From: Schaalia meyeri
GTDB taxonomy: Bacteria > Actinomycetota > Actinomycetes > Actinomycetales > Actinomycetaceae
Direction: 5' to 3'
Assembly (NCBI RefSeq): GCF_900105015.1
Contig: NZ_FNLK01000012.1
Span: 180,001-212,000, forward strand
DNA length: 32,000 nt
The position numbers and the translations under genes are program-made. Below, in pieces: positions 1,882 to 24,057 of the stretch; the first letter of the stretch is position 1; each line of letters starts with the position of its first letter. The notes under the pieces are model-generated. The model did no database searches. It was not told the origin of the DNA and worked only from the letters and a program-made list of their open reading frames with translations.

Positions 1882-3622
<1,741 letters not shown>

Positions 3623-6488: not shown

Positions 6489-6548
6489 GAACTCACCTTC
6501 CGAAAATAATTGAATATTGTAAGACTACCGAGCGAGACGAAACCTCGC

Positions 6549-8615
6549 CTAGTGCAACAGGCCACCCGTGGCAATCAGCCACGCGCCCACGAGGAAACCC
6601 GCACAGCCTACCGCGAGGAGCGCGCGGCCCCAGGGCGGACGCACGATCGAACGCAGCGAGGTGGCGATGCCGACGCGAAGGTCGGCAGCGAAGGGCATGA
6701 GCCAGGCAGCCAGGATCGTGGCCGCCGCGAGCGCCCAGACGATGATTGCCGCCGTGGGATCGCTCAGCCAGTAGTCGTCGCGCTCGGGGTAAGCGGCGAT
6801 GGCGACGCCGACGGGCCACGACCACAGCACCCTCCCCTCGCGGGAGTACGAGGCGAAAGCCCAGAGGCCGTAGGGAATGAGGCCGCCGACGATGAGGGCC
6901 AGGGAGGTGGTCAGGACCGACCGCAGGAGCAGGATCGGAGACATGGCCAGGACGGCCGCGCCATCGCTGGGCTTGGGACCGCGCAGGAACCGACGCCGCT
7001 CAAGCCACCGGCTCATCGCGCCAACCAGGCCAAAGGCGGTCAACGCGATGCCGACGACCAAAGTGCCCCTGGCCCCAAGCAGGAAAGGCAGGGAGGCCAG
7101 GGCCGCCAGCAACGACGCACCGGATATCCAGGCCCCCCTCCCCCACGACGAGGCCGCGGCATTCCTGCCCTGTCCGTTTCCCTGGGGAAAGGATCCGGCC
7201 GGGGCCCACTGGGGGCCGCCGCCCGCCAGGGGAGCGACAGCGGGCTGCTGGGGATAGGCCTGCCCATACCCGGGGGCCATGCCTGGACCCGGAGCAAAAG
7301 GCGCCTGGCCACCGTACCCGGGGGGAACTCCGGGACCTGGAACGTAAGGCGCCTGCTGCCCGGGGGGAACTCCGGGGCCCGGAGCGTAAGGAACCTGCCC
7401 ATACCCGGGGGAAACTCCGGGACCTGGAATATAAGGCGCCTGCTGCCCGGGGTCATCTCCCTGCGCGTAGGGGGCCATGACCTCCGTGGGTTCTGCGTCA
7501 TCCACGACCGGCCACGTAGCGGTGGGATCGACATGCCAGGGGACCTCTTCGGTGTCCTCGTCCCAGTCATCGCTGCTGTCCGCAATGGCCGCGGTATCAA
7601 CCACGTCGGTACGGTCGCCCTCCGCGGCGAACTCGGAGGCGTCGCGGGGCACACGATCCGGGCAGGAAACCGCACGCGCGCCGTCAGCGACCGGCCGTTG
7701 CCCGTCATCGTCCCATTCGGGCGGAGCGGCGATTTCCTGCGGGTCGGAGTTGATGAACTGGGTGGGCACACCCGTGTCGAGCAACTGAGCCCAGTTGACG
7801 GTCACGTAATCAAGCTCGCCGGGCGCCCATCCGACGGCGCCCATGAGATCCGCGACGACCAGGGAGGGCGAGGGACGGTCGTCGGGGTTGGACGCCAGGC
7901 CACCCGCGAGCGCGTCGGCGACCAGGGGGTGCAGCCCGGCCAGGTCGGGCGCGGCCTCGATGACGCGCAGCATGGTGGCCGACATGTCACCCGCGCCGAA
8001 GGGGGGTCGTCCGGTCGCGCACGAGAGCAGGGTGGCGCACCACGCCCACCAGTCGGATTCCTTGGTCGCTCCCCGCCCCCGGAGCAGTTCGGGCGCCGTG
8101 TACCCCGCCGTTCCAGAGACCAGGCCGGTGCGCGTCAGGTGCTGGTCCGAGGTGGCCATCGCGATGCCAAAGTCGATGAGGACGGGCCCTCTGGGAGAAC
8201 AGATGATGTTGGAGGGCTTGATGTCGCGGTGGATGATGTCAGCGTGGTGCACCGCGGCGATCGTGGAGGCCAGGTGGTAGGACATGGCGGCAACGCCGCG
8301 CAGGGGAACCGGCCCTGAGACGAGGATCTCGGCGAGCGTGGGCCCCTCGACGTACTCCGAGACCACGAAGGGCTGAGACGCCTCGGTTTCGACGTCAACA
8401 ATGTGCGCGACGAAGGGCGAACGCACGGAGTTCACGGTGCGCGTTTCGCGCGCCAAGCGGGCGCGCGACGCCTCGGAGGCCGCCAGCGCCGGATGCATGG
8501 CCTTGAGCGCGACGCGCGCGCCGCCTCCGTCCTCGGCCAACCAGACCGTGCCCGCGCCGCCCGTGCCGAGCCGACGGATCAGCCGGTAGCCGCCCAGTTC
8601 CTCGCCTTCTTCCAC
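6549..8615 (-). CDS. Hanks-type Ser/Thr protein kinase with Pro/Gly-rich repeats and a polytopic C-terminal membrane domain, 688 aa
   Basis: GTGGAGTVWLA...VALK, HRDIKPSNII, DFGIA and GTAGYTAPE. This is followed by an acidic linker, (Q)QAPY(I/V)PGPGVxPGYG repeats, and ~220 aa with about 6 hydrophobic helices. GTG start. Confidence 0.9.
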   Translation of the reverse strand: MEEGEELGGYRLIRRLGTGGAGTVWLAEDGGGARVALKAMHPALAASEASRARLARETRTVNSVRSPFVAHIVDVETEASQPFVVSEYVEGPTLAEILVSGPVPLRGVAAMSYHLASTIAAVHHADIIHRDIKPSNIICSPRGPVLIDFGIAMATSDQHLTRTGLVSGTAGYTAPELLRGRGATKESDWWAWCATLLSCATGRPPFGAGDMSATMLRVIEAAPDLAGLHPLVADALAGGLASNPDDRPSPSLVVADLMGAVGWAPGELDYVTVNWAQLLDTGVPTQFINSDPQEIAAPPEWDDDGQRPVADGARAVSCPDRVPRDASEFAAEGDRTDVVDTAAIADSSDDWDEDTEEVPWHVDPTATWPVVDDAEPTEVMAPYAQGDDPGQQAPYIPGPGVSPGYGQVPYAPGPGVPPGQQAPYVPGPGVPPGYGGQAPFAPGPGMAPGYGQAYPQQPAVAPLAGGGPQWAPAGSFPQGNGQGRNAAASSWGRGAWISGASLLAALASLPFLLGARGTLVVGIALTAFGLVGAMSRWLERRRFLRGPKPSDGAAVLAMSPILLLRSVLTTSLALIVGGLIPYGLWAFASYSREGRVLWSWPVGVAIAAYPERDDYWLSDPTAAIIVWALAAATILAAWLMPFAADLRVGIATSLRSIVRPPWGRALLAVGCAGFLVGAWLIATGGLLH
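7250..7455 (-). repeat. In-frame tandem DNA repeat (~42-45 bp units) encoding the PG-rich repeats of the kinase
   Basis: Units begin with CCCGGGGG(A)AACTCCGGG(A/G)CC at ~7317, 7358 and 7404, with degenerate copies on either side. Confidence 0.8.
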
Positions 8616-12287: not shown

Positions 12288-13499
12288 TTACTCGGGGTTT
12301 TGGCCGGCGCGGCGCGCGAAACGCTTGGACACGTGCTTAGCCAGCGACAGCTCGGCGATGGAGTCGACCACCATGAGGCCGCCGACGATGCCCGCGAAAC
12401 GCATCCATCCCGAGCGCGGCGATGAGGAACGAACGGCGGCGACGAGCAGGCCCGTTCCGACGATGGCCTCGGCCGCGACTGCCGCGTGGATAATCCAGGG
12501 GCGTTCGACAGCGACGGATTCGTAGGAGCTCCACAGGGGCTTGACCACCGACTGCGGCTGTCCCATCATGATGTCGACGCTGCGGCCGATCGCGTTGGAA
12601 ATGCCGCGCGCCAGGTGGACGGTGACCCCTTCGACGTCCTCAGCGTCCGTGATTCCCAGGAGGAATCCGGCGACGGATCCGGGCAGTCCGAGCGCGCGCA
12701 CGACCTTCCACACGGATTCTTCGCCGGTGGTGGCGACGCAGGCCCAGAGAGCGTCGGGGTCAGAACCGGGGACGGCGCGCGCAATGGCCAGCAGGTCGAG
12801 GCGGTCACCGACCAGGTCAATGACCTCGCCGGGCAGCTCGGACGTCTTGTCGTGGCCGCCTGGGACGATAGCGACCTTCATGCCCCAGTTGTGCGACACG
12901 ATGTGCTCAAGGTGGTCGTCGGTCACCAGGAATACCTGGAACTCAGAGTCGGACACGGAGAGCGTCACGAGCGGCAGATCACCGAAGTTCCACCCCTCCT
13001 TCTCAGCGGGAAGCTCGGCGAGGATCGCCCGGTGATCGTCGGCCAGTTCCAGATCGCCCAGGTCGACGCCCTCCAGGGCGGCCAGGAGTGGGACGGAGGA
13101 GGCGGGGGTGCGCCCGATCTCGACGATGCGGGTGGGTGCTACTAGCTCTGGTACCTTAGCGTCGTCGTCGGAGGGCCACACCTTCCCGAGGGGTGATTCC
13201 CCCTCCGGCAGGTGGTCGGCGGTGGCGTTCCCGATGCGCACCTCGGCGTCGAAGAGGATGGCGAGTTCCTCGGCCAGCTTATCGGGCGAGGGGCCGGGCC
13301 TCGCCTCGGTCGAGTCGGCGGGGACGGTGGCGACGCGTTCCTCGGCGACCGCGATGTTCAGGCCGAGCAGCTGCGGCGAGGCGGGGAACCATTCGAGCTG
13401 CGCCAGGATGGCCCGTTCTTTGAGTTCGGTGGCGACGACGCTGGGATCCAGGTCGTGGCCAATGATCATGCCTTCAATGCGGGTCCAGTTCTGGGCCAT
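12288..13499 (-). CDS. Hypothetical protein, 403 aa, cytoplasmic N-terminal ~330 aa plus two C-terminal TM helices
   Basis: Long ORF with a GC3-rich codon pattern and SD GGAAGG upstream of ATG 13499. The C-terminal hydrophobic segments are IIHAAVAAEAIVGTGLLVAAV and FAGIVGGLMVVDSIAEL. I recognise no family motif. Confidence 0.7.
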   Translation of the reverse strand: MAQNWTRIEGMIIGHDLDPSVVATELKERAILAQLEWFPASPQLLGLNIAVAEERVATVPADSTEARPGPSPDKLAEELAILFDAEVRIGNATADHLPEGESPLGKVWPSDDDAKVPELVAPTRIVEIGRTPASSVPLLAALEGVDLGDLELADDHRAILAELPAEKEGWNFGDLPLVTLSVSDSEFQVFLVTDDHLEHIVSHNWGMKVAIVPGGHDKTSELPGEVIDLVGDRLDLLAIARAVPGSDPDALWACVATTGEESVWKVVRALGLPGSVAGFLLGITDAEDVEGVTVHLARGISNAIGRSVDIMMGQPQSVVKPLWSSYESVAVERPWIIHAAVAAEAIVGTGLLVAAVRSSSPRSGWMRFAGIVGGLMVVDSIAELSLAKHVSKRFARRAGQNPE

Positions 13500-13599: not shown

Positions 13600-14286
13600 T
13601 CACCACTCGGCGCCACCCCACTCTACTGCAGTAAAACCAGTACGCACGGGCGGCGCCGCAAAAGTCTGCGGCTGGGCAACAGTGGTCGCGTCGGCCTCAC
13701 GAATCGTCATAAACACACGTATGAAAGAATCGGGAGTGATCTCGTTGTCGGCCTCATCCGCAAATCGATACGAAACCCGCTGCGTGTAGGCGGTCGCATC
13801 AAAGGACACAAACGTGTATTCATGCGCCCGCATGCGAGGCGCCCAATAGGTAATGAAATCAGCGGCCTCCCGATCATTGAGCCCAAGCTGACTCAGCTTA
13901 TCCTCCAAGAAGGGCACCGCATCATCACGGGAAACAACAAAACCCTGCTCGGGATCAGGCACAACCATCTGTCCATCCCAGAACAAAGAAGGATACGTGC
14001 GCCCGGAGAGGCCGGTGAGGGTGCCGTTGGGGGCGGCGTCCAGCGTCCACGAGGCCTGGGTTCGTCCGTCGGCGGCGCGGACGCTGTCGGGGGCGGGGTA
14101 CACGGTGTCGAGGGTGCCCTCAAGGTCGAGGGTGACGGTGAGCCGCTGCTCCACCTGCGGATACACACAAAGAACGGGCTTACGGGCCTTTCCCCGATCG
14201 GACAGGGTGGTCATGATTGCCACGGCGACAACGATCACAATGAGCACCCAGACAGTGCACCCAACAACGATCATTGCTTTCTTCAT
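13600..14286 (-). CDS. Membrane-anchored extracytoplasmic hypothetical protein, 228 aa
   Basis: N-terminal signal-anchor (MKKAMIVVGCTVWVLIVIVVAVAIM). Conserved-looking blocks are KPVLCVYP, YPSLFWDG, GFVV, FLEDKLSQLGLNDREAADFITYW, PDSFIRVFM and GFTAVEWGG. I recall these from uncharacterised proteins common in Firmicutes. Confidence 0.75.
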   Translation of the reverse strand: MKKAMIVVGCTVWVLIVIVVAVAIMTTLSDRGKARKPVLCVYPQVEQRLTVTLDLEGTLDTVYPAPDSVRAADGRTQASWTLDAAPNGTLTGLSGRTYPSLFWDGQMVVPDPEQGFVVSRDDAVPFLEDKLSQLGLNDREAADFITYWAPRMRAHEYTFVSFDATAYTQRVSYRFADEADNEITPDSFIRVFMTIREADATTVAQPQTFAAPPVRTGFTAVEWGGAEW

Positions 14287-14539
14287 GGTTTCCCGGCCTC
14301 TCTGTCGCGAACCCGTCGTGGACCTCGTCCACCCGCTGCTCGTCCCGCAGTTTCCTCATCATACGGCGCGCATTCGCTCCGTTTCAAGCCCCACAGGAAG
14401 AAGCGAAAACGCGCAGTTGGAAGCACACTCCCGCGTACGAAGCGCAAGAATTTTGAGTCATGCGTCATACGCTGCTATCCTAACCTGTTGCGCGACGCCG
14501 TTTTCAAGCGCGCCGCATCCCAGAGTGAAAGCAATAACC

Positions 14540-16006
14540 ATGTCTGTCGTGTTCATCGCAGCGAGCGTCGCCGCCGCTGTCATCCTCGTTTGTCTCTTCC
14601 TGTGGGCGAGCTTCGTCTCCGCCTCTCCGGGCGAAATCAAGGTCATCTCGGGACCTCGCGGCCAGCGGGTGCTGCACGGGAAGACCGGCTGGAAGGTCCC
14701 GCTGCTTGAGCGCGTGGACTCCATGACCGCCTCGATGATCTCCGTCGACGCCCAAACCACGGATTTCGTCCCCACGAACGACTACATCAACGTGCGCGTC
14801 GACGCGGCCGTGAAGGTTCGCATCGCGACGGATGATCTGGCCCTGTTCCGCGCAGCAACCCGCAACTTCCTGTACAAGACCACGGCCGAAATCTCCGAAG
14901 AAGTGCGCGATACCCTCGAGGGACACCTGCGCGCGATCATCGGCCAGATGAAGCTGACGGACATCATCACGGACCGCGCCGCGTTCTCGGAGCGTGTCCA
15001 GGAGAATGCGAAGCAGGACCTGGAAGAGATGGGCCTGGAGATCGTCGCCTTCAACATCCAGAACGTGACCGACCAAAACGGAGTCATCGACAACCTGGGT
15101 ATCGACAACACGGAGCAGATCCGCAAGACCGCGGCGATCGCGAAGGCGAACGCGCAAAAGGAAGTCGCGCAAGCGACCGCCGTGGCCCAGAAGGAAGCAA
15201 ACGACGCCGAGGTCGCGTCCCAGCTGGAGATCGCTCAAAAGCAGACGGATTTGGCGAAACGCCAGGCCGCCCTGAAGGTCGAGGCCGACACCGAGAAGGC
15301 CAAGGCGGACGCCGCGTACGAGATTCAGTCGCAGATCCAGCGCCGCGACATCGAGCGCGAGACCGCCCAGGCGGACATCGTGAAACAGGAGCAGCAGGCG
15401 GTCATCAAGGAACGGGAAGTCGTCGTCACCAAGCAGGCCCTGCAGGCCGAGGTGAATGCGAAGGCCGACGCCGACCGTTACGCCGCCGAGAAGAAGGCCG
15501 ACGCCGCCCTGTACGCGCGCCAGCGCCAGGCCGAGGCAGAGGCCTTCGAACGCACGAAGAAGGCGGACGCCGACAAACAGGCGATGCTCGCCGAGGCTCA
15601 GGGCATTGAGGCTCGCGGCCGCGCGGAGGCCAGCGCTATCGGCGCGAAGCTGACGGCTGAGGCGGAGGGTCTTGAAAAGAAGGCCGTGGCCATGACCAAG
15701 ATGAATCAGGCTGCCGTGCTGGAAATGTACTTCCGCGCGCTGCCCGAGGTCGCGCGGGCGGTTGCCGAGCCTCTGTCGAAGGTCGATTCGATCACGATGT
15801 ACGGCGAGGGCAACAACGCGCACATGGTCGGCGACATTACGAAATCGATCAGCCAGATCAACGCGGGCCTGGGCGATTCGCTGGGCTTGAACCTCCAGCA
15901 GCTGTTCTCGGCCCTCGTGGGCGCGAAGCTGGTGTCGCCCACTATCGCCGACGCTGTGGAAGAGGGGGTGCGCGACGCCTCCGACCCGAGGCCCACGCAG
16001 GGGTAG
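14540..16006 (+). CDS. Flotillin / SPFH (band 7) family protein, FloT/YuaG-like, 488 aa
   Basis: N-terminal membrane hairpin, then an SPFH domain (PGEIKVISGPRGQRVLHGKTGWKVPLLERV...). This is followed by a long A/E/K/Q-rich coiled-coil flotillin region. The start is ATG 14540 within ORF 13997..16006. Confidence 0.92.
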   Translation: MSVVFIAASVAAAVILVCLFLWASFVSASPGEIKVISGPRGQRVLHGKTGWKVPLLERVDSMTASMISVDAQTTDFVPTNDYINVRVDAAVKVRIATDDLALFRAATRNFLYKTTAEISEEVRDTLEGHLRAIIGQMKLTDIITDRAAFSERVQENAKQDLEEMGLEIVAFNIQNVTDQNGVIDNLGIDNTEQIRKTAAIAKANAQKEVAQATAVAQKEANDAEVASQLEIAQKQTDLAKRQAALKVEADTEKAKADAAYEIQSQIQRRDIERETAQADIVKQEQQAVIKEREVVVTKQALQAEVNAKADADRYAAEKKADAALYARQRQAEAEAFERTKKADADKQAMLAEAQGIEARGRAEASAIGAKLTAEAEGLEKKAVAMTKMNQAAVLEMYFRALPEVARAVAEPLSKVDSITMYGEGNNAHMVGDITKSISQINAGLGDSLGLNLQQLFSALVGAKLVSPTIADAVEEGVRDASDPRPTQG

Positions 16007-16023
16007 CGCGCACAAAGCTGCTC

Positions 16024-16057
16024 GAAGAGGCGGGATCTTTCGGGATCCCGCCTCTTC
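16024..16057 (+). terminator. Hairpin terminator after the flotillin gene
   Basis: GAAGAGGCGGGATC (16024-16037), loop TTTCGG, GATCCCGCCTCTTC (16044-16057). This is a perfect 14-bp stem. Confidence 0.75.
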
Positions 16058-16486
16058 GCGTGCGCGGCGCGAGATCGGGGCGTGCTCGCCGAGGAGCGAC
16101 ACAAGCCCACCCGCCGGGCGCCAGCGGTGTCCGGCCTCCAGTCAGGGGGTCGCCGTGGAGCCTCTCGGCTCAGACTTGGGCGCCGTCTTTCGATGGTGGT
16201 GTATTTGGTGGGTTGGGTGTCTGGTGCGGGGTTGGGATGGTGGGTGGGCGAGGAGGGGCAGGAGTTGGTAGTCCGGGTTTGTTTCGAGGCGCGTTGGCTC
16301 ACTTGGCGCGCATAAATCTTGCTGAGGTGTTCGTGGTGGGCAGCCCTGTTCGCGGGCATGTATGCGCCTTAGCGTGCGCCGTAGAGGGCTGCGCGTATCT
16401 TAGCGGGTTGAGAACAGTCAGCCCGATAACGGGGGTGTGGCCTGCGTGGATGGGGGTGAGCGCGCGGCGCGCGTGAGTCCCGCATC

Positions 16487-16585
16487 TGGATAGGAAACGG
16501 CTTCGTGGATAGGTTACGAGCTTCTGGATAGGTTAATAACCTATCCACGAGTGCATAACCTATCCAGCAACGCACTTCCTATCCA
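16487..16585. repeat. Mirror-symmetric array of six TGGATAGG boxes, 19-bp phasing
   Basis: Direct boxes are at 16487-16494, 16506-16513 and 16525-16532. Inverted boxes (CCTATCCA) are at 16540-16547, 16559-16566 and 16578-16585. Positions 16525-16547 form a perfect 11-1-11 palindrome, TGGATAGGTTA-A-TAACCTATCCA. Confidence 0.95.
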
Positions 16586-16777
16586 CGAACCAGCCGCAAA
16601 AGGCAGCAACACCAACAGCAGCGGGGTCGAGCCACTGCGGGTTGACGGTGTCGCGAAAAAACGGCGCGCAACCCCGGCAGTAGTAGCACGCGGCACCTGA
16701 TCCCACGCAGGCCGACAGCCACGGGAACGGATCAACGCCCCTGCAGACACACAGCACGCTTCACAGACACACAACAA

Positions 16778-16809
16778 GGCCGCCCGCCCCCCGGTGGGGG
16801 CGGGCGGCC
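16778..16809 (-). terminator. Hairpin terminator downstream of fba
   Basis: GGCCGCCCGCCCCC (16778-16791), loop CGGT, GGGGGCGGGCGGCC (16796-16809). On the minus strand it is followed by TTGTTGTGTGT. Confidence 0.8.
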
Positions 16810-16847: not shown

Positions 16848-17873
16848 TCAGCGCATCTGGGTGCCGGTGGCCCCCAGGCGCTCGCATGCCTCGACGACGC
16901 GGGCAGCCATGCCGGCCTCGGCGGCCTTGCCCCACGTGCGCGGGTCGTACTGCTTCTTGATGCCGACCTCGCCGTCGATCTTGAGGACGCCCTCGTAGTT
17001 GCGCAGCATGTGGTCGACGACCGGGCGGGTGAACGCGTACTGGGTGTCGGTGTCGACGTTCATCTTGATGACGCCGTTGGCGACAGCGGTCGCGATCTCC
17101 TCGGCGGTCGAGCCGGAGCCGCCGTGCATGACCAGGTCGAAGGGGCGGCGATCCAGGCCGTAGTGGGCGGCGACCTCTTCCTGGATGGTGCCCAGCAGCT
17201 CGGGACGCAGCTTGACGTGGCCGGGCTTGTAGGCGCCGTGCACGTTGCCGAAGGTCAGGGCCGTGAGGTAGCGGCCGTTCTCACCCAGGCCCAGGGCCTC
17301 GACGGTCTTGATGCCGTCCGCGGTGGAGGTGTATAGCTTCTCGTTGATCTCGCCGACGACGCCGTCTTCTTCGCCGCCGACCGCGCCGACCTCGATCTCG
17401 AGGATGGTGTGGGCCTTGACGGACAGGGCGAGCAGCTCCTTAGCGATCTCGAGGTTCTCGTCGAGGTCGATGGCGGAGCCGTCCCACATGTGGGACTGGA
17501 AGGTGGGGAGCTTGCCTTCGGCGACCTGGCCTGCCTCGATCTCGAGGAGGGGGCGGACCCAGGAGTCGATGTTCTGCTTCGCGCAGTGGTCGGTGTGCAG
17601 CGCGACGGTGATGCCGTAGTTCTTGGCAACCTCGGTCGCGTAGGCCGCGAGGGCCAGGGAGCCGGTGACGCGGTTCTTGATGGTGGAGCCGGAGCCGTAC
17701 TCGGCGCCGCCGACGGACACCTGGAGGATACCGTCGGACTCGGCCTCTGCGAAGCCCTGGAGGGCGGCGGTGATGGTCTGGGAAGAGGTCACATTGATCG
17801 CGGGGTAGGCGAACTTGCCGTCCCTGGCGCGATTGAGCATCTCTGCGTAGACCTCGGGGGTTGCGATAGGCAC
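16848..17873 (-). CDS. fba: Class II fructose-1,6-bisphosphate aldolase, 341 aa
   Basis: (M)PIATPEVYAEMLNRARDGKFAYPAINVTSS...HTDHC...HGGSG. The GTG start at 17873 has a strong SD AGGAGG 6 nt upstream. Confidence 0.96.
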   Translation of the reverse strand: MPIATPEVYAEMLNRARDGKFAYPAINVTSSQTITAALQGFAEAESDGILQVSVGGAEYGSGSTIKNRVTGSLALAAYATEVAKNYGITVALHTDHCAKQNIDSWVRPLLEIEAGQVAEGKLPTFQSHMWDGSAIDLDENLEIAKELLALSVKAHTILEIEVGAVGGEEDGVVGEINEKLYTSTADGIKTVEALGLGENGRYLTALTFGNVHGAYKPGHVKLRPELLGTIQEEVAAHYGLDRRPFDLVMHGGSGSTAEEIATAVANGVIKMNVDTDTQYAFTRPVVDHMLRNYEGVLKIDGEVGIKKQYDPRTWGKAAEAGMAARVVEACERLGATGTQMR

Positions 17874-21115: not shown

Positions 21116-23929
21116 TCATCGGGTGCGGATGAGGTATCCCGCTCCGCCGCCCGCGAGTGCGGCCGGGATGACGAGGAGCGTGAGCCAGTAGGGGCTCCAG
21201 CCGCGCGTGCGCCCCAGCTCGGCTGACGCGGCGACGGGCAGAGGGTTGGCCGCATCATTCGCGCCGTCCATGGGGGAATCGGTCGCGCCGCTCTGAGCAG
21301 ACTCACCGCTCATCGCGCCGCTCTGTGAGCTGGACGTGGAACCGTTTGCCTGGGTTGTGCCCGCCGATGGTGCCGCCTTGGGGGAGGTGACCGGCGTGCC
21401 CCCCGAGGAGTTGCCGGTCGCGGGCGCGGCGCCCGTCGACGTATTCGTTCGCGAGGAGTTCGCGCCGGAACCGGCGGAGGCGGGCGTGCGGTTCGTCGTG
21501 TTCGAGGTCTGGGTGCCTCCCGCGTTGGTGCGTCCTGCGTTTCCGGGGGGCGCGACGGGACCGGTGCGCGGAGCCGCAGGCGGAGCCGGGGCATTGGTGG
21601 GGGTCGGCGCGGGCGCTGGGTCCGCCCCCGGGGCCGGATTGGGCGCGGGGTCGGGTGTCGGGGCGGGGCTGGGGTCGGGTGTCGGGGCGGGACCGGGCGA
21701 TGGGCTGGGTTCGGGCTGGGGGCTCGGTCCGGGGGACGGGGTATCCGATTCGTGGCCCGATCGCACGACCACCGTGAAGCTCTGCGGTTCAACGAGCTTA
21801 CGGTCTCCGCTGCGCGCGCCCACCTCAATGCGGTAGGTTCCGGGCGCGCTGAAGACCCAGTTGCCGTGCATGTGGGTGGCTTCCTTCGTGCGAACGATGC
21901 CGTCGCCCTTGGTCGAATCGAAGTGGACCTTTGCGCTGCTGCCGAAGGTTCCCCCCTGGAAGAAGGCGGCGCGCGCGCCCTCGGGCGCCTCGGCGAGGTG
22001 CAGGGTGAGATCGGCGCCGTCGCCCAGGGCGGCATAGTCGATCCCCTCGGTGGACAGGCCGGGCCAGACGATGTCGCTCTTTTGTGTTTCGGGCAGGACG
22101 TAGGTCGCTGTCCCGACCGGGCCGAGGACGTCGTAGCTGGGGTCGGAAAGGGAAGCGGGCCGCACGAATCGGGCGTTGGGTCCGACTCCGAGGGTCGTGG
22201 AGGACAGGGTGCGCAGGACGGAGGTGCGCGCCGCGGTCAGGGAGTCATCCTTGATGGCCAGCCCGTAGGTCGTGCCCGACTTGCCGGTGTCCTGGGTGAG
22301 GCGCACGTCCAGGTGGCCGCTCGCGATCTTAACGGGATCGTTCAGGAGGGGCGAGGACGGGCCCGGGTTTTGCCCTTCTCCGGGACCGGGGCTGGGGCTG
22401 GGATCGGGCGTGGGGGTGGGAGCGGGGTTGGGTTCGTCCGGGCTGGGCGTTCCGGCGCGCATCTTGAGGGTGGCCGTGAGGCCGACGTGCTCGCCAACGG
22501 TGACGTTGCTGGCCTCAGCGACAGTCATGACCGCGTCGGAGAGGGGGTGGGGACGCAGGGTGACGCGCATGTACATGGGTTGTCCCTGGCACACGCCGAG
22601 ATCCTGGGGTTTGCTGTCGGTTCCCCCCGCTCCGAGGGTGCCCTCCATGGAGCACCAGGGGCTGAAGTCGTTCTTGGATTCGAGGAACTCGATCTTGTAG
22701 GTGGCCCGCAGGTTCGGGTCGGCCGCGCGCACGGTGGCCATGTACTGGTCTTTCGTGCCGGGCTTCAGGTCGTAAGAGACGTCGACGCGGCGCGAGGAGA
22801 CGGGCAGCCTGTCGGGATTCCAGGTGGGGGCGGGATCCGGGTTGGAGGGGCCGTGGATGCTGTCGCCGCCGCCGACGGTGACGGGCTCCGTGTTCTTCTG
22901 CGAGTACTGTGCCGCCTGAGAGATCCACCGGGCCGAGGAGGAGTCCCCCGGAATGTAGATCGCCTGGACGGCGGCGGCGTCCGCTCCGAGCAGCTCGGAC
23001 ACTTGAGCTCGCCCGCCCTGGACTGGAACCTCGGTCAGGAAGTAGCCGTTGACGGTGACCCACGCGCGCCCGCTGTCGGTGGCGACGCCCGTGTCGATGG
23101 TGATGTCGGTGAGGTGGTTATCGCCGGGGTGGGCGCGCTGCGTGTGCGGGGCGAGGGTCAGGGTGGGGGTGGCCGCCTCGCTGTCGGCCCGGGCGGCGCG
23201 CGCGTTGTCGTAGGCGGAGGCGATGTCCTTGATGGTCCCCTCGGAGGGGTTTTCCCCTCCGACCTGCCAGACCAGCGGGGTGAGTGGCGAGGAGTAGATC
23301 GCGGTCCCGTCGGCGCTGCGCGCGGTCATCTTGTAGGTGGCGACGTAGCGGCCGGGCTGCGTGAAGGTGGTGTAGAGGTGGGTGTGGCGGGGGTTGTAGA
23401 CGCTGCGGTAGGCGGTGTCGTGGCTGGAGAGGAAGCGGTTAACGCTGTCTCCGTTATCGATGAACATCTCCATGCGTCCGGGACCGTCGACGCTCACGAG
23501 GTCCAGCGTGTAGGTTTCGCCTTCGAACTTGTCGGTGCTTCCGATTTCACCGGCGCCCAGGCCCGCCCAGATTGGCGTGTTGCCGGGACCGGGGTTCTGC
23601 GGAGCGGCGTTCAGCACGGTTCCTTCGGCACCGAGGAAGGACAGGTCGGGTCGCCCGGCGGGTACGGCGAGCTGCGACTTCGCCTCGTCCCTGTCGCTGG
23701 TTCCGGTCCATGCCTTGGGGAGCCACAGGACCGTTTTCTCCATCGGCATGTTGATGGTGTTGAGGGTAAAGCTGGAGGTGTCGTCGTGCCAGATGGGAAT
23801 GGGGGCGTCAACGTGTTGTCGGGTGACGATCCAATCCTTGTCCTGATCCGGCCCTGCCCATGCGGTCGTGGGGGCCAGTGCCAGGAACAGGGCGACAGCT
23901 GCTGTGCTAACGCGTCGCAGGTATGACAT
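21116..23929 (-). CDS. Secreted, C-terminally membrane-anchored surface protein with two choice-of-anchor-M (TIGR03769-like) domains and a long P/T/S/A-rich stalk, 937 aa
   Basis: Signal peptide MSYLRRVSTAAVALFLALAPTTAWA. Domain 1 reads IVTRQHVDAPI...LSFLGAEG...IWAG...VDGPGRMEMF...RHTHLYTTFTQPGRYV. Domain 2 reads IASGHLDVRL...VLPETQ...VWPGLSTEG...THMHGNWVFSAPGTYRI. The PSPGPSPQPEPSPSPGPAPTP... stalk is followed by a terminal TM helix plus RTR. The start is ATG 23929 with SD GAAGAGG. Confidence 0.85.
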   Translation of the reverse strand: MSYLRRVSTAAVALFLALAPTTAWAGPDQDKDWIVTRQHVDAPIPIWHDDTSSFTLNTINMPMEKTVLWLPKAWTGTSDRDEAKSQLAVPAGRPDLSFLGAEGTVLNAAPQNPGPGNTPIWAGLGAGEIGSTDKFEGETYTLDLVSVDGPGRMEMFIDNGDSVNRFLSSHDTAYRSVYNPRHTHLYTTFTQPGRYVATYKMTARSADGTAIYSSPLTPLVWQVGGENPSEGTIKDIASAYDNARAARADSEAATPTLTLAPHTQRAHPGDNHLTDITIDTGVATDSGRAWVTVNGYFLTEVPVQGGRAQVSELLGADAAAVQAIYIPGDSSSARWISQAAQYSQKNTEPVTVGGGDSIHGPSNPDPAPTWNPDRLPVSSRRVDVSYDLKPGTKDQYMATVRAADPNLRATYKIEFLESKNDFSPWCSMEGTLGAGGTDSKPQDLGVCQGQPMYMRVTLRPHPLSDAVMTVAEASNVTVGEHVGLTATLKMRAGTPSPDEPNPAPTPTPDPSPSPGPGEGQNPGPSSPLLNDPVKIASGHLDVRLTQDTGKSGTTYGLAIKDDSLTAARTSVLRTLSSTTLGVGPNARFVRPASLSDPSYDVLGPVGTATYVLPETQKSDIVWPGLSTEGIDYAALGDGADLTLHLAEAPEGARAAFFQGGTFGSSAKVHFDSTKGDGIVRTKEATHMHGNWVFSAPGTYRIEVGARSGDRKLVEPQSFTVVVRSGHESDTPSPGPSPQPEPSPSPGPAPTPDPSPAPTPDPAPNPAPGADPAPAPTPTNAPAPPAAPRTGPVAPPGNAGRTNAGGTQTSNTTNRTPASAGSGANSSRTNTSTGAAPATGNSSGGTPVTSPKAAPSAGTTQANGSTSSSQSGAMSGESAQSGATDSPMDGANDAANPLPVAASAELGRTRGWSPYWLTLLVIPAALAGGGAGYLIRTR

Positions 23930-23958
23930 GCGGGTGCCTCTTCTAGCTATGTTGTAGG

Positions 23959-23973
23959 TGAGAATCATTATCA
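23959..23973. promoter_or_regulatory. Fur-family (Zur/Fur-type) 7-1-7 operator overlapping the surface-protein promoter
   Basis: TGAGAAT-C-ATTATCA matches the 7-1-7 Fur-box consensus TGATAAT-N-ATTATCA at 14/15. The dyad extends to AGGTGAGAATCATTATCACTT. A minus-strand -10-like GATAAT lies inside the box, 30-45 nt upstream of ATG 23929. Confidence 0.65.
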
Positions 23974-24057
23974 CTTAGAATTGGCTCTCGCACAACTCCG
24001 TGTTTCACACATGTTTCACGACAGAGTTTCGCCGCGCACCCCTTCGCCGCACCCCGA

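Follow-up and report, generated by a model that had tools for sequence, protein, structure and literature searches.

What kind of site is formed by six identical boxes set in mirror order between two convergent genes? The array that raises this question lies at positions 16487-16585 of a 32,000-nt stretch of the Schaalia meyeri genome (RefSeq assembly GCF_900105015.1, contig NZ_FNLK01000012.1, positions 180,001 to 212,000), hereafter called the window, and a first-pass annotation had described it as a perfectly mirror-symmetric, unassigned protein-binding architecture. Sequence reading and a pattern search gave six exact TGGATAGG boxes at 19-bp phase around a mirror axis at base 16536. On the + strand TGGATAGG starts at 16487, 16506 and 16525, and the inverted box CCTATCCA occupies 16540-16547, 16559-16566 and 16578-16585, with box edges at -49/-30/-11 and +11/+30/+49 relative to the axis. 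All of these coordinates agree with those first given, and the symmetry of the box flanks and the 23-bp palindrome at 16525-16547 are both present: the inner four extended boxes are TGGATAGGTTA and the outer two TGGATAGGAA(A/G). The two 49-nt arms (16487-16535 and 16537-16585) are 78% complementary, the array has a GC content of 47% in a window of 66%, and this copy begins with TG and finishes with CA. The window holds seven exact matches to the 8-mer box, compared with 0.44 expected from dinucleotide shuffles, and seven were reached in 0 of 100 shuffles; the seventh match, at 1422-1429, is isolated from the array. The six-box feature is real and far from chance.

Sequence comparison places the window array, as a single copy, in a family of ~105-bp interspersed repeats restricted to Schaalia and Pauljensenia (Actinomycetaceae). 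A scan for two phased boxes found the same design in five high-GC contigs of a viral collection, with direct GGATAGGTTA units at 19 bp followed by a central GGATAGSTTANTAACCTATCC dyad and then by inverted units. The family was retrieved with the palindrome core GGATAGSTTANTAASCTATCC as anchor. A genome scan for the central dyad, with one genome per species, yielded at least 116 loci, and those listed come almost all from Schaalia, Pauljensenia or 'Actinomyces' of the odontolytica group. Actinomyces sp. HPA0247 has at least 10 loci, Pauljensenia sp. 20925_1_27 at least 8 and Schaalia sp. ORNL0103 at least 7; overall, the genomes of relatives carry at least 5-10 array loci each, distributed across all large contigs. 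A metagenome scan for the T-flanked dyad added 96 further loci, including at least eight distinct array contigs in one assembly at one coverage level. After removal of duplicates, 232 arrays with different flanks remained, from Schaalia/Pauljensenia genomes and oral metagenomes. The flanks of non-orthologous copies are unrelated, indicating that the repeated entity is the array itself. The idea of a singular, locus-specific architecture is thus overturned. The first-pass annotation had also named membership of a known multi-copy insertion sequence (IS) or miniature inverted-repeat transposable element (MITE) as evidence that would tell against its reading; the array is indeed multi-copy and MITE- or REP-like, but it corresponds to no known IS or MITE.

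A phage or prophage origin of the family was considered and rejected: the palindrome occurs in 6 of 2.9 million viral contigs, and in 5 of these it stands at a contig end beside host-like genes. Two viral contigs from IMG/VR, with 48% GC, hold 10-11 TGGATAGG boxes in ~270 bp (L007 8920-9200 and L010 4490-4770). These boxes are in mixed orientation, include 9-bp tandem pairs and one 19-bp-phased pair, and lie between primase/helicase and HNH endonuclease genes; they are probably the iterons of a phage replication origin that use the same 8-mer in an unrelated layout. Several assemblies labelled 'Sanguibacter keddieii 250_SKED' and 'Xylanimonas cellulosilytica 352_XCEL' (L031, L034, L047, L059, L074 and others) show Schaalia-type arrays and synteny, with an ECF-sigma (extracytoplasmic function sigma factor) locus 91-97% identical, and are probably mislabelled Schaalia/Pauljensenia. 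Literature searches with the 8-mer and 10-mer box returned only primers, and searches on Schaalia/Actinomyces repeats and on DUF559 returned nothing relevant. A description of the family is not found in the searchable literature, in agreement with the earlier remark that no described regulator has this box.

Alignment of 260 arms on their centre defined a 19-bp unit with the consensus ATSY-GGATAGGTTA-YGMRC, in which conservation covers 14 bp (ATSY-GGATAGGTTA) and leaves 5 bp free. Information content reaches background just beyond -52/+52 from the centre, which sets the element at ~105 bp, and its outermost bases are A(T/C)(G/C)(C/T) family-wide. On this basis, the whole element in the window extends from 16484 to 16588, with three 19-bp units per arm arranged head to head around 16536. 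The in-register units read ATCTGGATAGGAAACGGCT / TCGTGGATAGGTTACGAGC / TTCTGGATAGGTTA and are mirrored on the opposite arm. The left outer unit occupies 16484-16502 on the + strand (box TGGATAGGAAA at 16487-16497) and the left middle unit 16503-16521 on the same strand (box TGGATAGGTTA at 16506-16516). Two truncated inner units make up the central 11+1+11 palindrome, TGGATAGGTTA-A-TAACCTATCCA, at 16525-16547. On the - strand follow the right middle unit at 16551-16569 (box CCTATCCA at 16559-16566, TAACCTATCCA at 16556-16566) and the right outer unit at 16570-16588 (box CCTATCCA at 16578-16585, reverse complement TGGATAGGAAG).

The 3+3 form seen in the window is the mode of the family (66-75 of ~135 arrays), with arms ranging from 1 to 9 units. 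The central boxes include one GGATAGC variant [(C,G)+(G,C)] in 93 arrays, none (G,G) in 39 and two (C,C) in 1. The window copy belongs to the symmetric-centre (G,G) class and also to a subfamily with GGAAA(C) outer units (L072, L151, L210). The GGATAGC-bearing arm has a spacer signature of its own that is common to non-orthologous copies, suggesting that elements were copied as whole, polarised units. Adjacent spacers within an arm are alike at 0.55-0.63, compared with 0.44-0.53 for random pairs, which fits slippage or unequal exchange.

Variation at the orthologous site points the same way. In S. meyeri W712, the same site carries 5+4 units instead of the 3+3 of the window. The mirror symmetry described as perfect is therefore true of the window strain but represents one state of a variable-number repeat, and as far as these sequences tell, unit number changes by slippage or unequal exchange. 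A degenerate seventh box, TGGATGGG, had been reported at 16447-16454 (+ strand); it is present, but at 40 bp before the first box, and not 38 bp, it is out of the 19-bp phase and is probably a decayed unit. In a metagenome variant with the same fba gene (L003), one unit is converted and 99 extra bp of degenerate units stand beside the outer box, on the same side of the array as the TGGATGGG box. This 99-bp indel (L003 2617-2720 versus window 16455-16487) is bounded by GTTTCCTATCCAG and GTTTCCTAATACAG, and resembles a deletion with a good unit on one side and a decayed unit on the other.

Beyond S. meyeri, Pauljensenia species also have an array between the flotillin-like gene and fba, of another subtype, in a repeat-rich gap of 2.2 kb that is not alignable with the gap in the window. 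The Pauljensenia gap contains GC-rich GCGGGGCCTGGCCGCGGTGCCGGTGGGCGGCGGC-like tandem repeats (L098 5400-5500 and 6250-6420, with equivalents in L101 and L077), several other inverted-repeat elements, and a small conserved open reading frame (ORF) with the look of a membrane protein at about L098 4937-5359. S. turicensis, Schaalia sp. ZJ405 and an uncultured relative (L141) are without both the flotillin-like gene and the array, and their fba gene adjoins a homologue of the window gene at 12288-13499.

To what is the conservation of the array due? The second and third boxes, which lie outside any search pattern, are 85-98% conserved among the 260 arms, and the spacers are near random. In 28 interspecies orthologous pairs, boxes diverged by 3.6% per site, compared with 15-24% for spacers and ~29% for 60-nt flanks; the AT and TT box positions, touched by no filter, diverged by ~4%. 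Boxes are thus ~8-fold better conserved than flanks at orthologous sites, and, judged by these divergences, they are under purifying selection, as had been proposed from the boxes and their 19-bp spacing in the single copy. Gene conversion between copies was rejected as the cause, since spacers remain copy-specific.

The size and dyad shape of the element resemble those of REPINs (PMC3116915, PMC3337134), copies favour gene 3' ends, and a 107-nt strand folds at -53.3 kcal/mol (z = -9.5). These properties would be expected of a single-stranded RNA or DNA hairpin, be it a REP/BIME-like 3' stabiliser, a bidirectional terminator, a cruciform or a single-stranded DNA substrate for an HUH enzyme. 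However, the stability of the fold is due to the boxes alone. Mirrored spacers show no excess complementarity, with an identity of 0.49 compared with 0.52 for non-mirrored spacers and 0.53 for other arrays, and at the five variable positions there is even a slight deficit (0.33 versus 0.44). The box sequence is conserved, not pairing alone; the window copy lies outside both neighbouring transcription units, past their terminators; the only two matches of an Rfam scan of the gap were at chance level (E = 0.42 and E = 0.89) and lay clear of the array; and no RAYT/Y1 gene was seen beside arrays. We regard a hairpin function as very unlikely. Conserved boxes with non-complementary spacers indicate a constraint on box sequence and phase, and we infer that this constraint reflects sequence-specific recognition, for which the simplest case is a predicted protein reading duplex DNA. 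The earlier dismissal of an RNA hairpin, a coding repeat and a clustered regularly interspaced short palindromic repeat (CRISPR) array holds on all three counts. The gap has no coding-like ORF, and the 19-bp period, 5-9 variable bases and mirrored arms differ from the direct repeats of at least 23 nt, in one orientation and with unique spacers of similar length, that define CRISPR.

The position of the window copy bears on whether it serves its neighbours. The ~720-bp gap that contains the array is flanked by convergent genes for an SPFH/flotillin-like protein (13997-16006, +) and a class II fructose-bisphosphate aldolase (fba, 16848-17873, -; product identical to QQC43426.1 of CP066065.1). 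A strong terminator hairpin of its own follows each gene: a perfect 15-bp stem at 16023-16058 (+) for the flotillin-like gene and, at 16778-16809 (-), 14 G-C pairs with a T-rich tail after them on the - strand for fba. The array lies beyond both. The gap contains no ORF with a coding-like GC content at third codon positions (GC3), a promoter scan of it found no promoter-like site, and BLAST of the gap against plasmids and phages gave no match. The earlier statement that the array is not in a promoter position is confirmed, and the window copy probably regulates neither the flotillin-like gene nor fba. Fits of the boxes to -10/-35 or ECF promoter elements were poor and were discarded. A DtxR/IdeR iron box was likewise rejected by sequence reading: TAGGTTA is common to both, but the half-sites here are 2 bp closer and the register misfits.

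Locus-specific roles had also been proposed, namely a box cluster that titrates DnaA, a site with partition or centromere function, the iterons of some cryptic replicon, or operators for a transcript in the gap. The 19-bp period is typical of plasmid iterons, CGTGGATAGG / CCTATCCACG matches TTATCCACA at 7/9 in three window boxes, and a CCTATCCAC(A/G) subfamily exists. Against these roles, copies occur at many loci among housekeeping genes, and the 1.9 Mb of fetched DNA contained no rep, par or dnaA close to a copy; rep, par and regulator genes are also lacking near the window array, and rep, par, dnaA and recombinase genes in the window as a whole. An iteron or centromere set would be expected beside rep or par, at a single locus per replicon; what we find is a dispersed family and, at this site, flotillin-like and fba neighbours. 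DnaA titration fails because the DnaA-like bases (…CCAC) of the window boxes are the least conserved family-wide. Positions 7-8 are R and S across the family, the most variable in the unit and almost neutral at 24% per site, whereas GGTTA, which lies outside the DnaA box, is conserved; the CCTATCCAC likeness is limited to one subfamily. The family consensus is CTATCCRSA, compared with the general DnaA-box pattern TT(A/G)TCCACA and its conserved CACA. As to operators, crude gene calls place only 4 of the 76 classified arrays in gaps between divergent promoters, and the window copy, between terminators, has no promoter-like site in its gap. Family dispersal, read from these sequences, refutes a locus-specific centromere, operator or replicon, and the family data argue against the DnaA cluster; we consider such roles, taken together, scarcely probable. 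The position of this locus near coordinate 10 kb of the W712 record had suggested origin proximity, which was set aside: the window has clpB and is without dnaA, and no dnaA was present in the fetched loci.

The other window genes are ordinary chromosomal ones (GDPD, DUF4032 kinase-like, SpoU methylase, ClpB, TetR). Sizeable ORFs without a Pfam match lie at 21116-23974 (-, 952 aa), 12288-13499 (-, 403 aa), 13600-14286 (-, 228 aa) and 6510-8318 (+, 602 aa); the 403-aa protein is kept beside fba across Schaalia at 53-88% identity. The G+T content is 0.64 at 16060-16480 and 0.35 at 16590-16777, compared with 0.50 for the whole window, so either strand read towards the window array is G/T-rich. 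This flip in keto skew was discarded as a family trait, being specific to the window (family means 0.51 and 0.48).

How, then, did the copies spread? Arrays are intergenic and mostly downstream of genes, and none lies wholly within a good ORF. Among 76 classified arrays, flanking genes were convergent in 28, tandem in 44 and divergent in 4; copies thus avoid the gaps of divergent gene pairs. Neighbours are ordinary housekeeping genes, and the recurrent neighbour genes that we followed up as a clue proved to be housekeeping too. Copies persist at orthologous sites across species, and arrays can duplicate locally together with their flank.

Arrayed sites at transposon ends are known from Mu (L1-L3/R1-R3), Tn7 (TnsB sites) and Tn402 (19-bp TniA repeats). 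The family could accordingly be the relic of a DDE transposon with arrayed transposase sites (Tn7, Mu, Tn402/Tn5053, IS21), its ends fused into a MITE mobilised in trans. Terminal inverted repeats of the classical MITE kind are present, the arms being inverted copies of the same units with 3-4 direct ~19-bp sites each; the family is multi-copy, the window copy has TG...CA termini, and the inherited polarity of the arms suggests copying as a unit. Yet target-site duplications of 2-10 bp, sought exactly and partially at offsets -3 to +5, equalled shuffled controls in both 134 and 232 arrays. The TG...CA termini are not conserved family-wide, no transposase stands beside or between arrays in the fetched loci, there are almost no half-arrays in ~0.9 Mb, boxes stay conserved in place long after insertion, and no empty sites occur among the array-selected loci. 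The lack of target duplications, of a transposase and, nearly, of half-arrays points to old, vertically inherited repeats and not to active cut-and-paste transposition; we judge the relic explanation improbable.

The explanation we favour, and consider about equally likely to be right or wrong as a whole, is a clade-restricted repeat with protein-bound units, inherited in the manner of REPINs and served by a nuclease partner. Each unit would be a duplex-DNA site for one predicted sequence-specific protein, loading cooperatively along both arms, on direct repeats in the arms and on the dyad at the centre, as do iteron-binding initiators and transposases at arrayed end-sites. The family would consist of REPIN-like repeats, non-autonomous and passed on vertically, and not of cut-and-paste MITEs, and the window copy in S. 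meyeri is probably a passively retained or host-tolerated member.

The most speculative step concerns the partner. The likeliest candidate is a single-copy, array-bracketed gene for a ~360-aa PD-(D/E)XK nuclease of the Vsr/DUF559 type. In 12 fetched loci, one per genome, the 3' end of this gene always runs into an array, its last ~10 codons (...R-I-G-N-Q-H-V-D-R) being array sequence, and there is usually another array 100-400 bp upstream. Loci with 3-4 arrays are without exception those of this gene. The protein has only weak Pfam matches (DUF559 / REase_MTES_1575), and NCBIfam and PDB sequence searches gave no match. Its alignment displays a D...E-F-D-G...K motif with D251, E262, D264 and K268 invariant or nearly so. 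In an AlphaFold model of pLDDT 83 (predicted local distance difference test), the matches of the C-terminal domain are I-Bth0305I, a homing endonuclease, and Vsr, and a whole-protein fold search returned domain-level matches only. The family comprises 95 clusters, mostly from oral metagenomes, and has distant relatives with AbiEi-type domains.

Segments bounded by two arrays alternate with solo arrays in relatives. At the nuclease locus, Actinomyces sp. HPA0247 (L042) has a solo array exactly where its relatives have array(s)-gene-array(s). In S. odontolytica UMB0018 (L038 2069-3560), a ~1-kb insert with a NADAR gene is bounded by two near-identical arrays, at a place where three relatives (L027, L051, L085) have one array and no insert. 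The inserted gene (2736-3377) encodes a DarT1-associated NADAR antitoxin (Pfam E = 1.6e-86), and no DarT-like toxin ORF is evident beside it. These alternations suggest that the arrays may act as portable recombination or homology modules. In its fullest form, the proposal is that arrays and nuclease constitute an undescribed, vertically inherited repeat-enzyme partnership analogous to REPIN/RAYT, in which the nuclease would read iteron-like double-stranded DNA sites and the arrays would let cassettes such as the nuclease gene and the NADAR insert enter and leave solo arrays. We put this forward tentatively and regard it as unlikely.

Several results weigh against the favoured explanation. The N-terminal 230 aa of the nuclease contain no recognisable DNA-binding domain, HPA0247 is without the gene at that locus and keeps at least 10 arrays, and S. 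meyeri appears to be without an annotated homologue. Homologues at 47% identity in another Actinomyces lineage have no GGATAGG arrays. Adjacency of nuclease gene and arrays is largely that of one conserved locus, in an abhydrolase / ECF-sigma neighbourhood, and may therefore count as a single evolutionary event. As to dispersal in S. meyeri itself, the metagenome matches have only the array in common with the window, not the flanks. Among orthologous pairs, 67 were filled and 0 empty, all loci having been chosen for the presence of an array, and no recent insertion was seen in these array-selected loci. The gene-orientation counts rest on crude GC3-based gene calls. The link between nuclease and arrays is thus put forward as a candidate one. 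Upstream of a 47%-identical homologue (Actinomyces sp., LT707420.1; L246 3639-3744), two unrelated direct-repeat pairs at exact 19-bp spacing, with two copies each of ATCGACACCACTTGGCGGC and CCAAACGGTGTCAATC, and two copies of TCATCCACAG are present, and no GGATAGG boxes; these may be a different cognate repeat, or coincidence.

Retention of arrays in genomes and loci without the nuclease gene is what one would predict if they were host sites for a dedicated nucleoid-associated or chromosome-organising protein (compare matS/MatP, NBS/Noc, ram/RacA), unrelated to the nuclease. Purifying selection on boxes at orthologous sites, the persistence of the three-unit mode despite frequent slippage and the spread of copies over all large contigs would also agree with such a role. 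However, a candidate protein is lacking, the family does not extend beyond one genus-level clade, and the dynamics seen in local tandem duplications and in cassettes bounded by arrays resemble those of selfish or neutral repeats. Copies also cluster with a junk-like second repeat family, 64 of its 110 matches lying within 300 nt of an array. We view a host organiser as possible, though unlikely. The second family is ~130 bp long with termini AAAGTCGCACGTAATT ... AATTACGTGCGAC; it occurs in Pauljensenia/Schaalia gaps (L098 4650-4800 and 5990-6150, and near arrays in L033, L034, L041 and L053) and is absent from the window. Its motif matches were counted in 863 kb against GGATAGG arrays, with which it co-localises in long gaps.

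Long-persisting interspersed repeats are rarely found in the genomes of bacteria and are understood mainly through REPIN/RAYT. If the favoured explanation of a vertically inherited, protein-bound repeat is correct, a second and architecturally different persistent family would widen that picture to Actinobacteria, distinguished by arrays of phased protein boxes, the absence of hairpin constraint and of target duplications, and purifying selection on the boxes. A predicted sequence-specific DNA-binding protein in common human oral commensals would be implied as well. In practical terms, unit-number differences between strains mean that arrays could serve as typing markers; arrays probably break short-read assemblies, with many copies at contig ends; and they mark where gene cassettes come and go. 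The expectation that the window site controls fba or the flotillin-like gene is removed.

Among known systems, REPINs are repeats that flank a partner gene present in single copy (PMC3116915, PMC3337134, bioRxiv 10.1101/2021.07.10.451892). The arrays share with REPIN/RAYT of Pseudomonas and Enterobacteria the form of an extragenic inverted doublet of ~100 bp in tens of copies per genome, without target duplication, vertically inherited and persistent at orthologous sites; and a Vsr-like nuclease gene is flanked by arrays as RAYT is by REPINs, which makes it the putative counterpart. They differ in that the arms are phased 19-bp tandem units and not one imperfect hairpin, with no complementarity beyond the boxes, non-core sequence included (0.49 versus 0.52/0.53), and in that their host is an actinobacterium. 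The only consistently array-flanked gene encodes a candidate partner of the PD-(D/E)XK (Vsr/DUF559) type and not an HUH Y1 enzyme, and it is absent from some array-bearing genomes.

The ends of Mu, Tn7, Tn402/Tn5053 and IS21, and MITEs, resemble the arrays in having several direct 19-22 bp sites per end, inverted ends and multiple copies; in contrast, the arrays have no target duplications, conserved terminal dinucleotides or transposase, their arms abut, and their boxes are conserved in place. Iterons with operator dyads (P1, F, pSC101) and centromeres (parC, tubC) likewise place ~19-bp direct repeats beside an inverted repeat of the same box, with a logic of monomers on direct repeats, dimers on the dyad and cooperative loading, but the arrays are chromosomal, dispersed and without adjacent rep or par, and 19 bp is ~1.8 helical turns, not 2. 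Pneumococcal BOX and mycobacterial MIRU are similarly intergenic and multi-copy, with unit numbers that differ between strains; they have no sequence in common with the arrays, which are mirror-symmetric, show the box/spacer pattern of conservation and are not known to be transcribed. The Vsr-like (EDxHD) endonuclease I-Bth0305I shares its fold with the C-terminal domain of the candidate partner, and the way in which the candidate gene and an intact solo array replace each other at one site loosely resembles homing endonuclease presence and absence; the nuclease gene, in contrast, is flanked by complete arrays, not split half-sites, and is not in an intron or intein. The repeat family is closest to REPINs in behaviour and to arrayed transposase or iteron sites in design, and fails a defining test of each.

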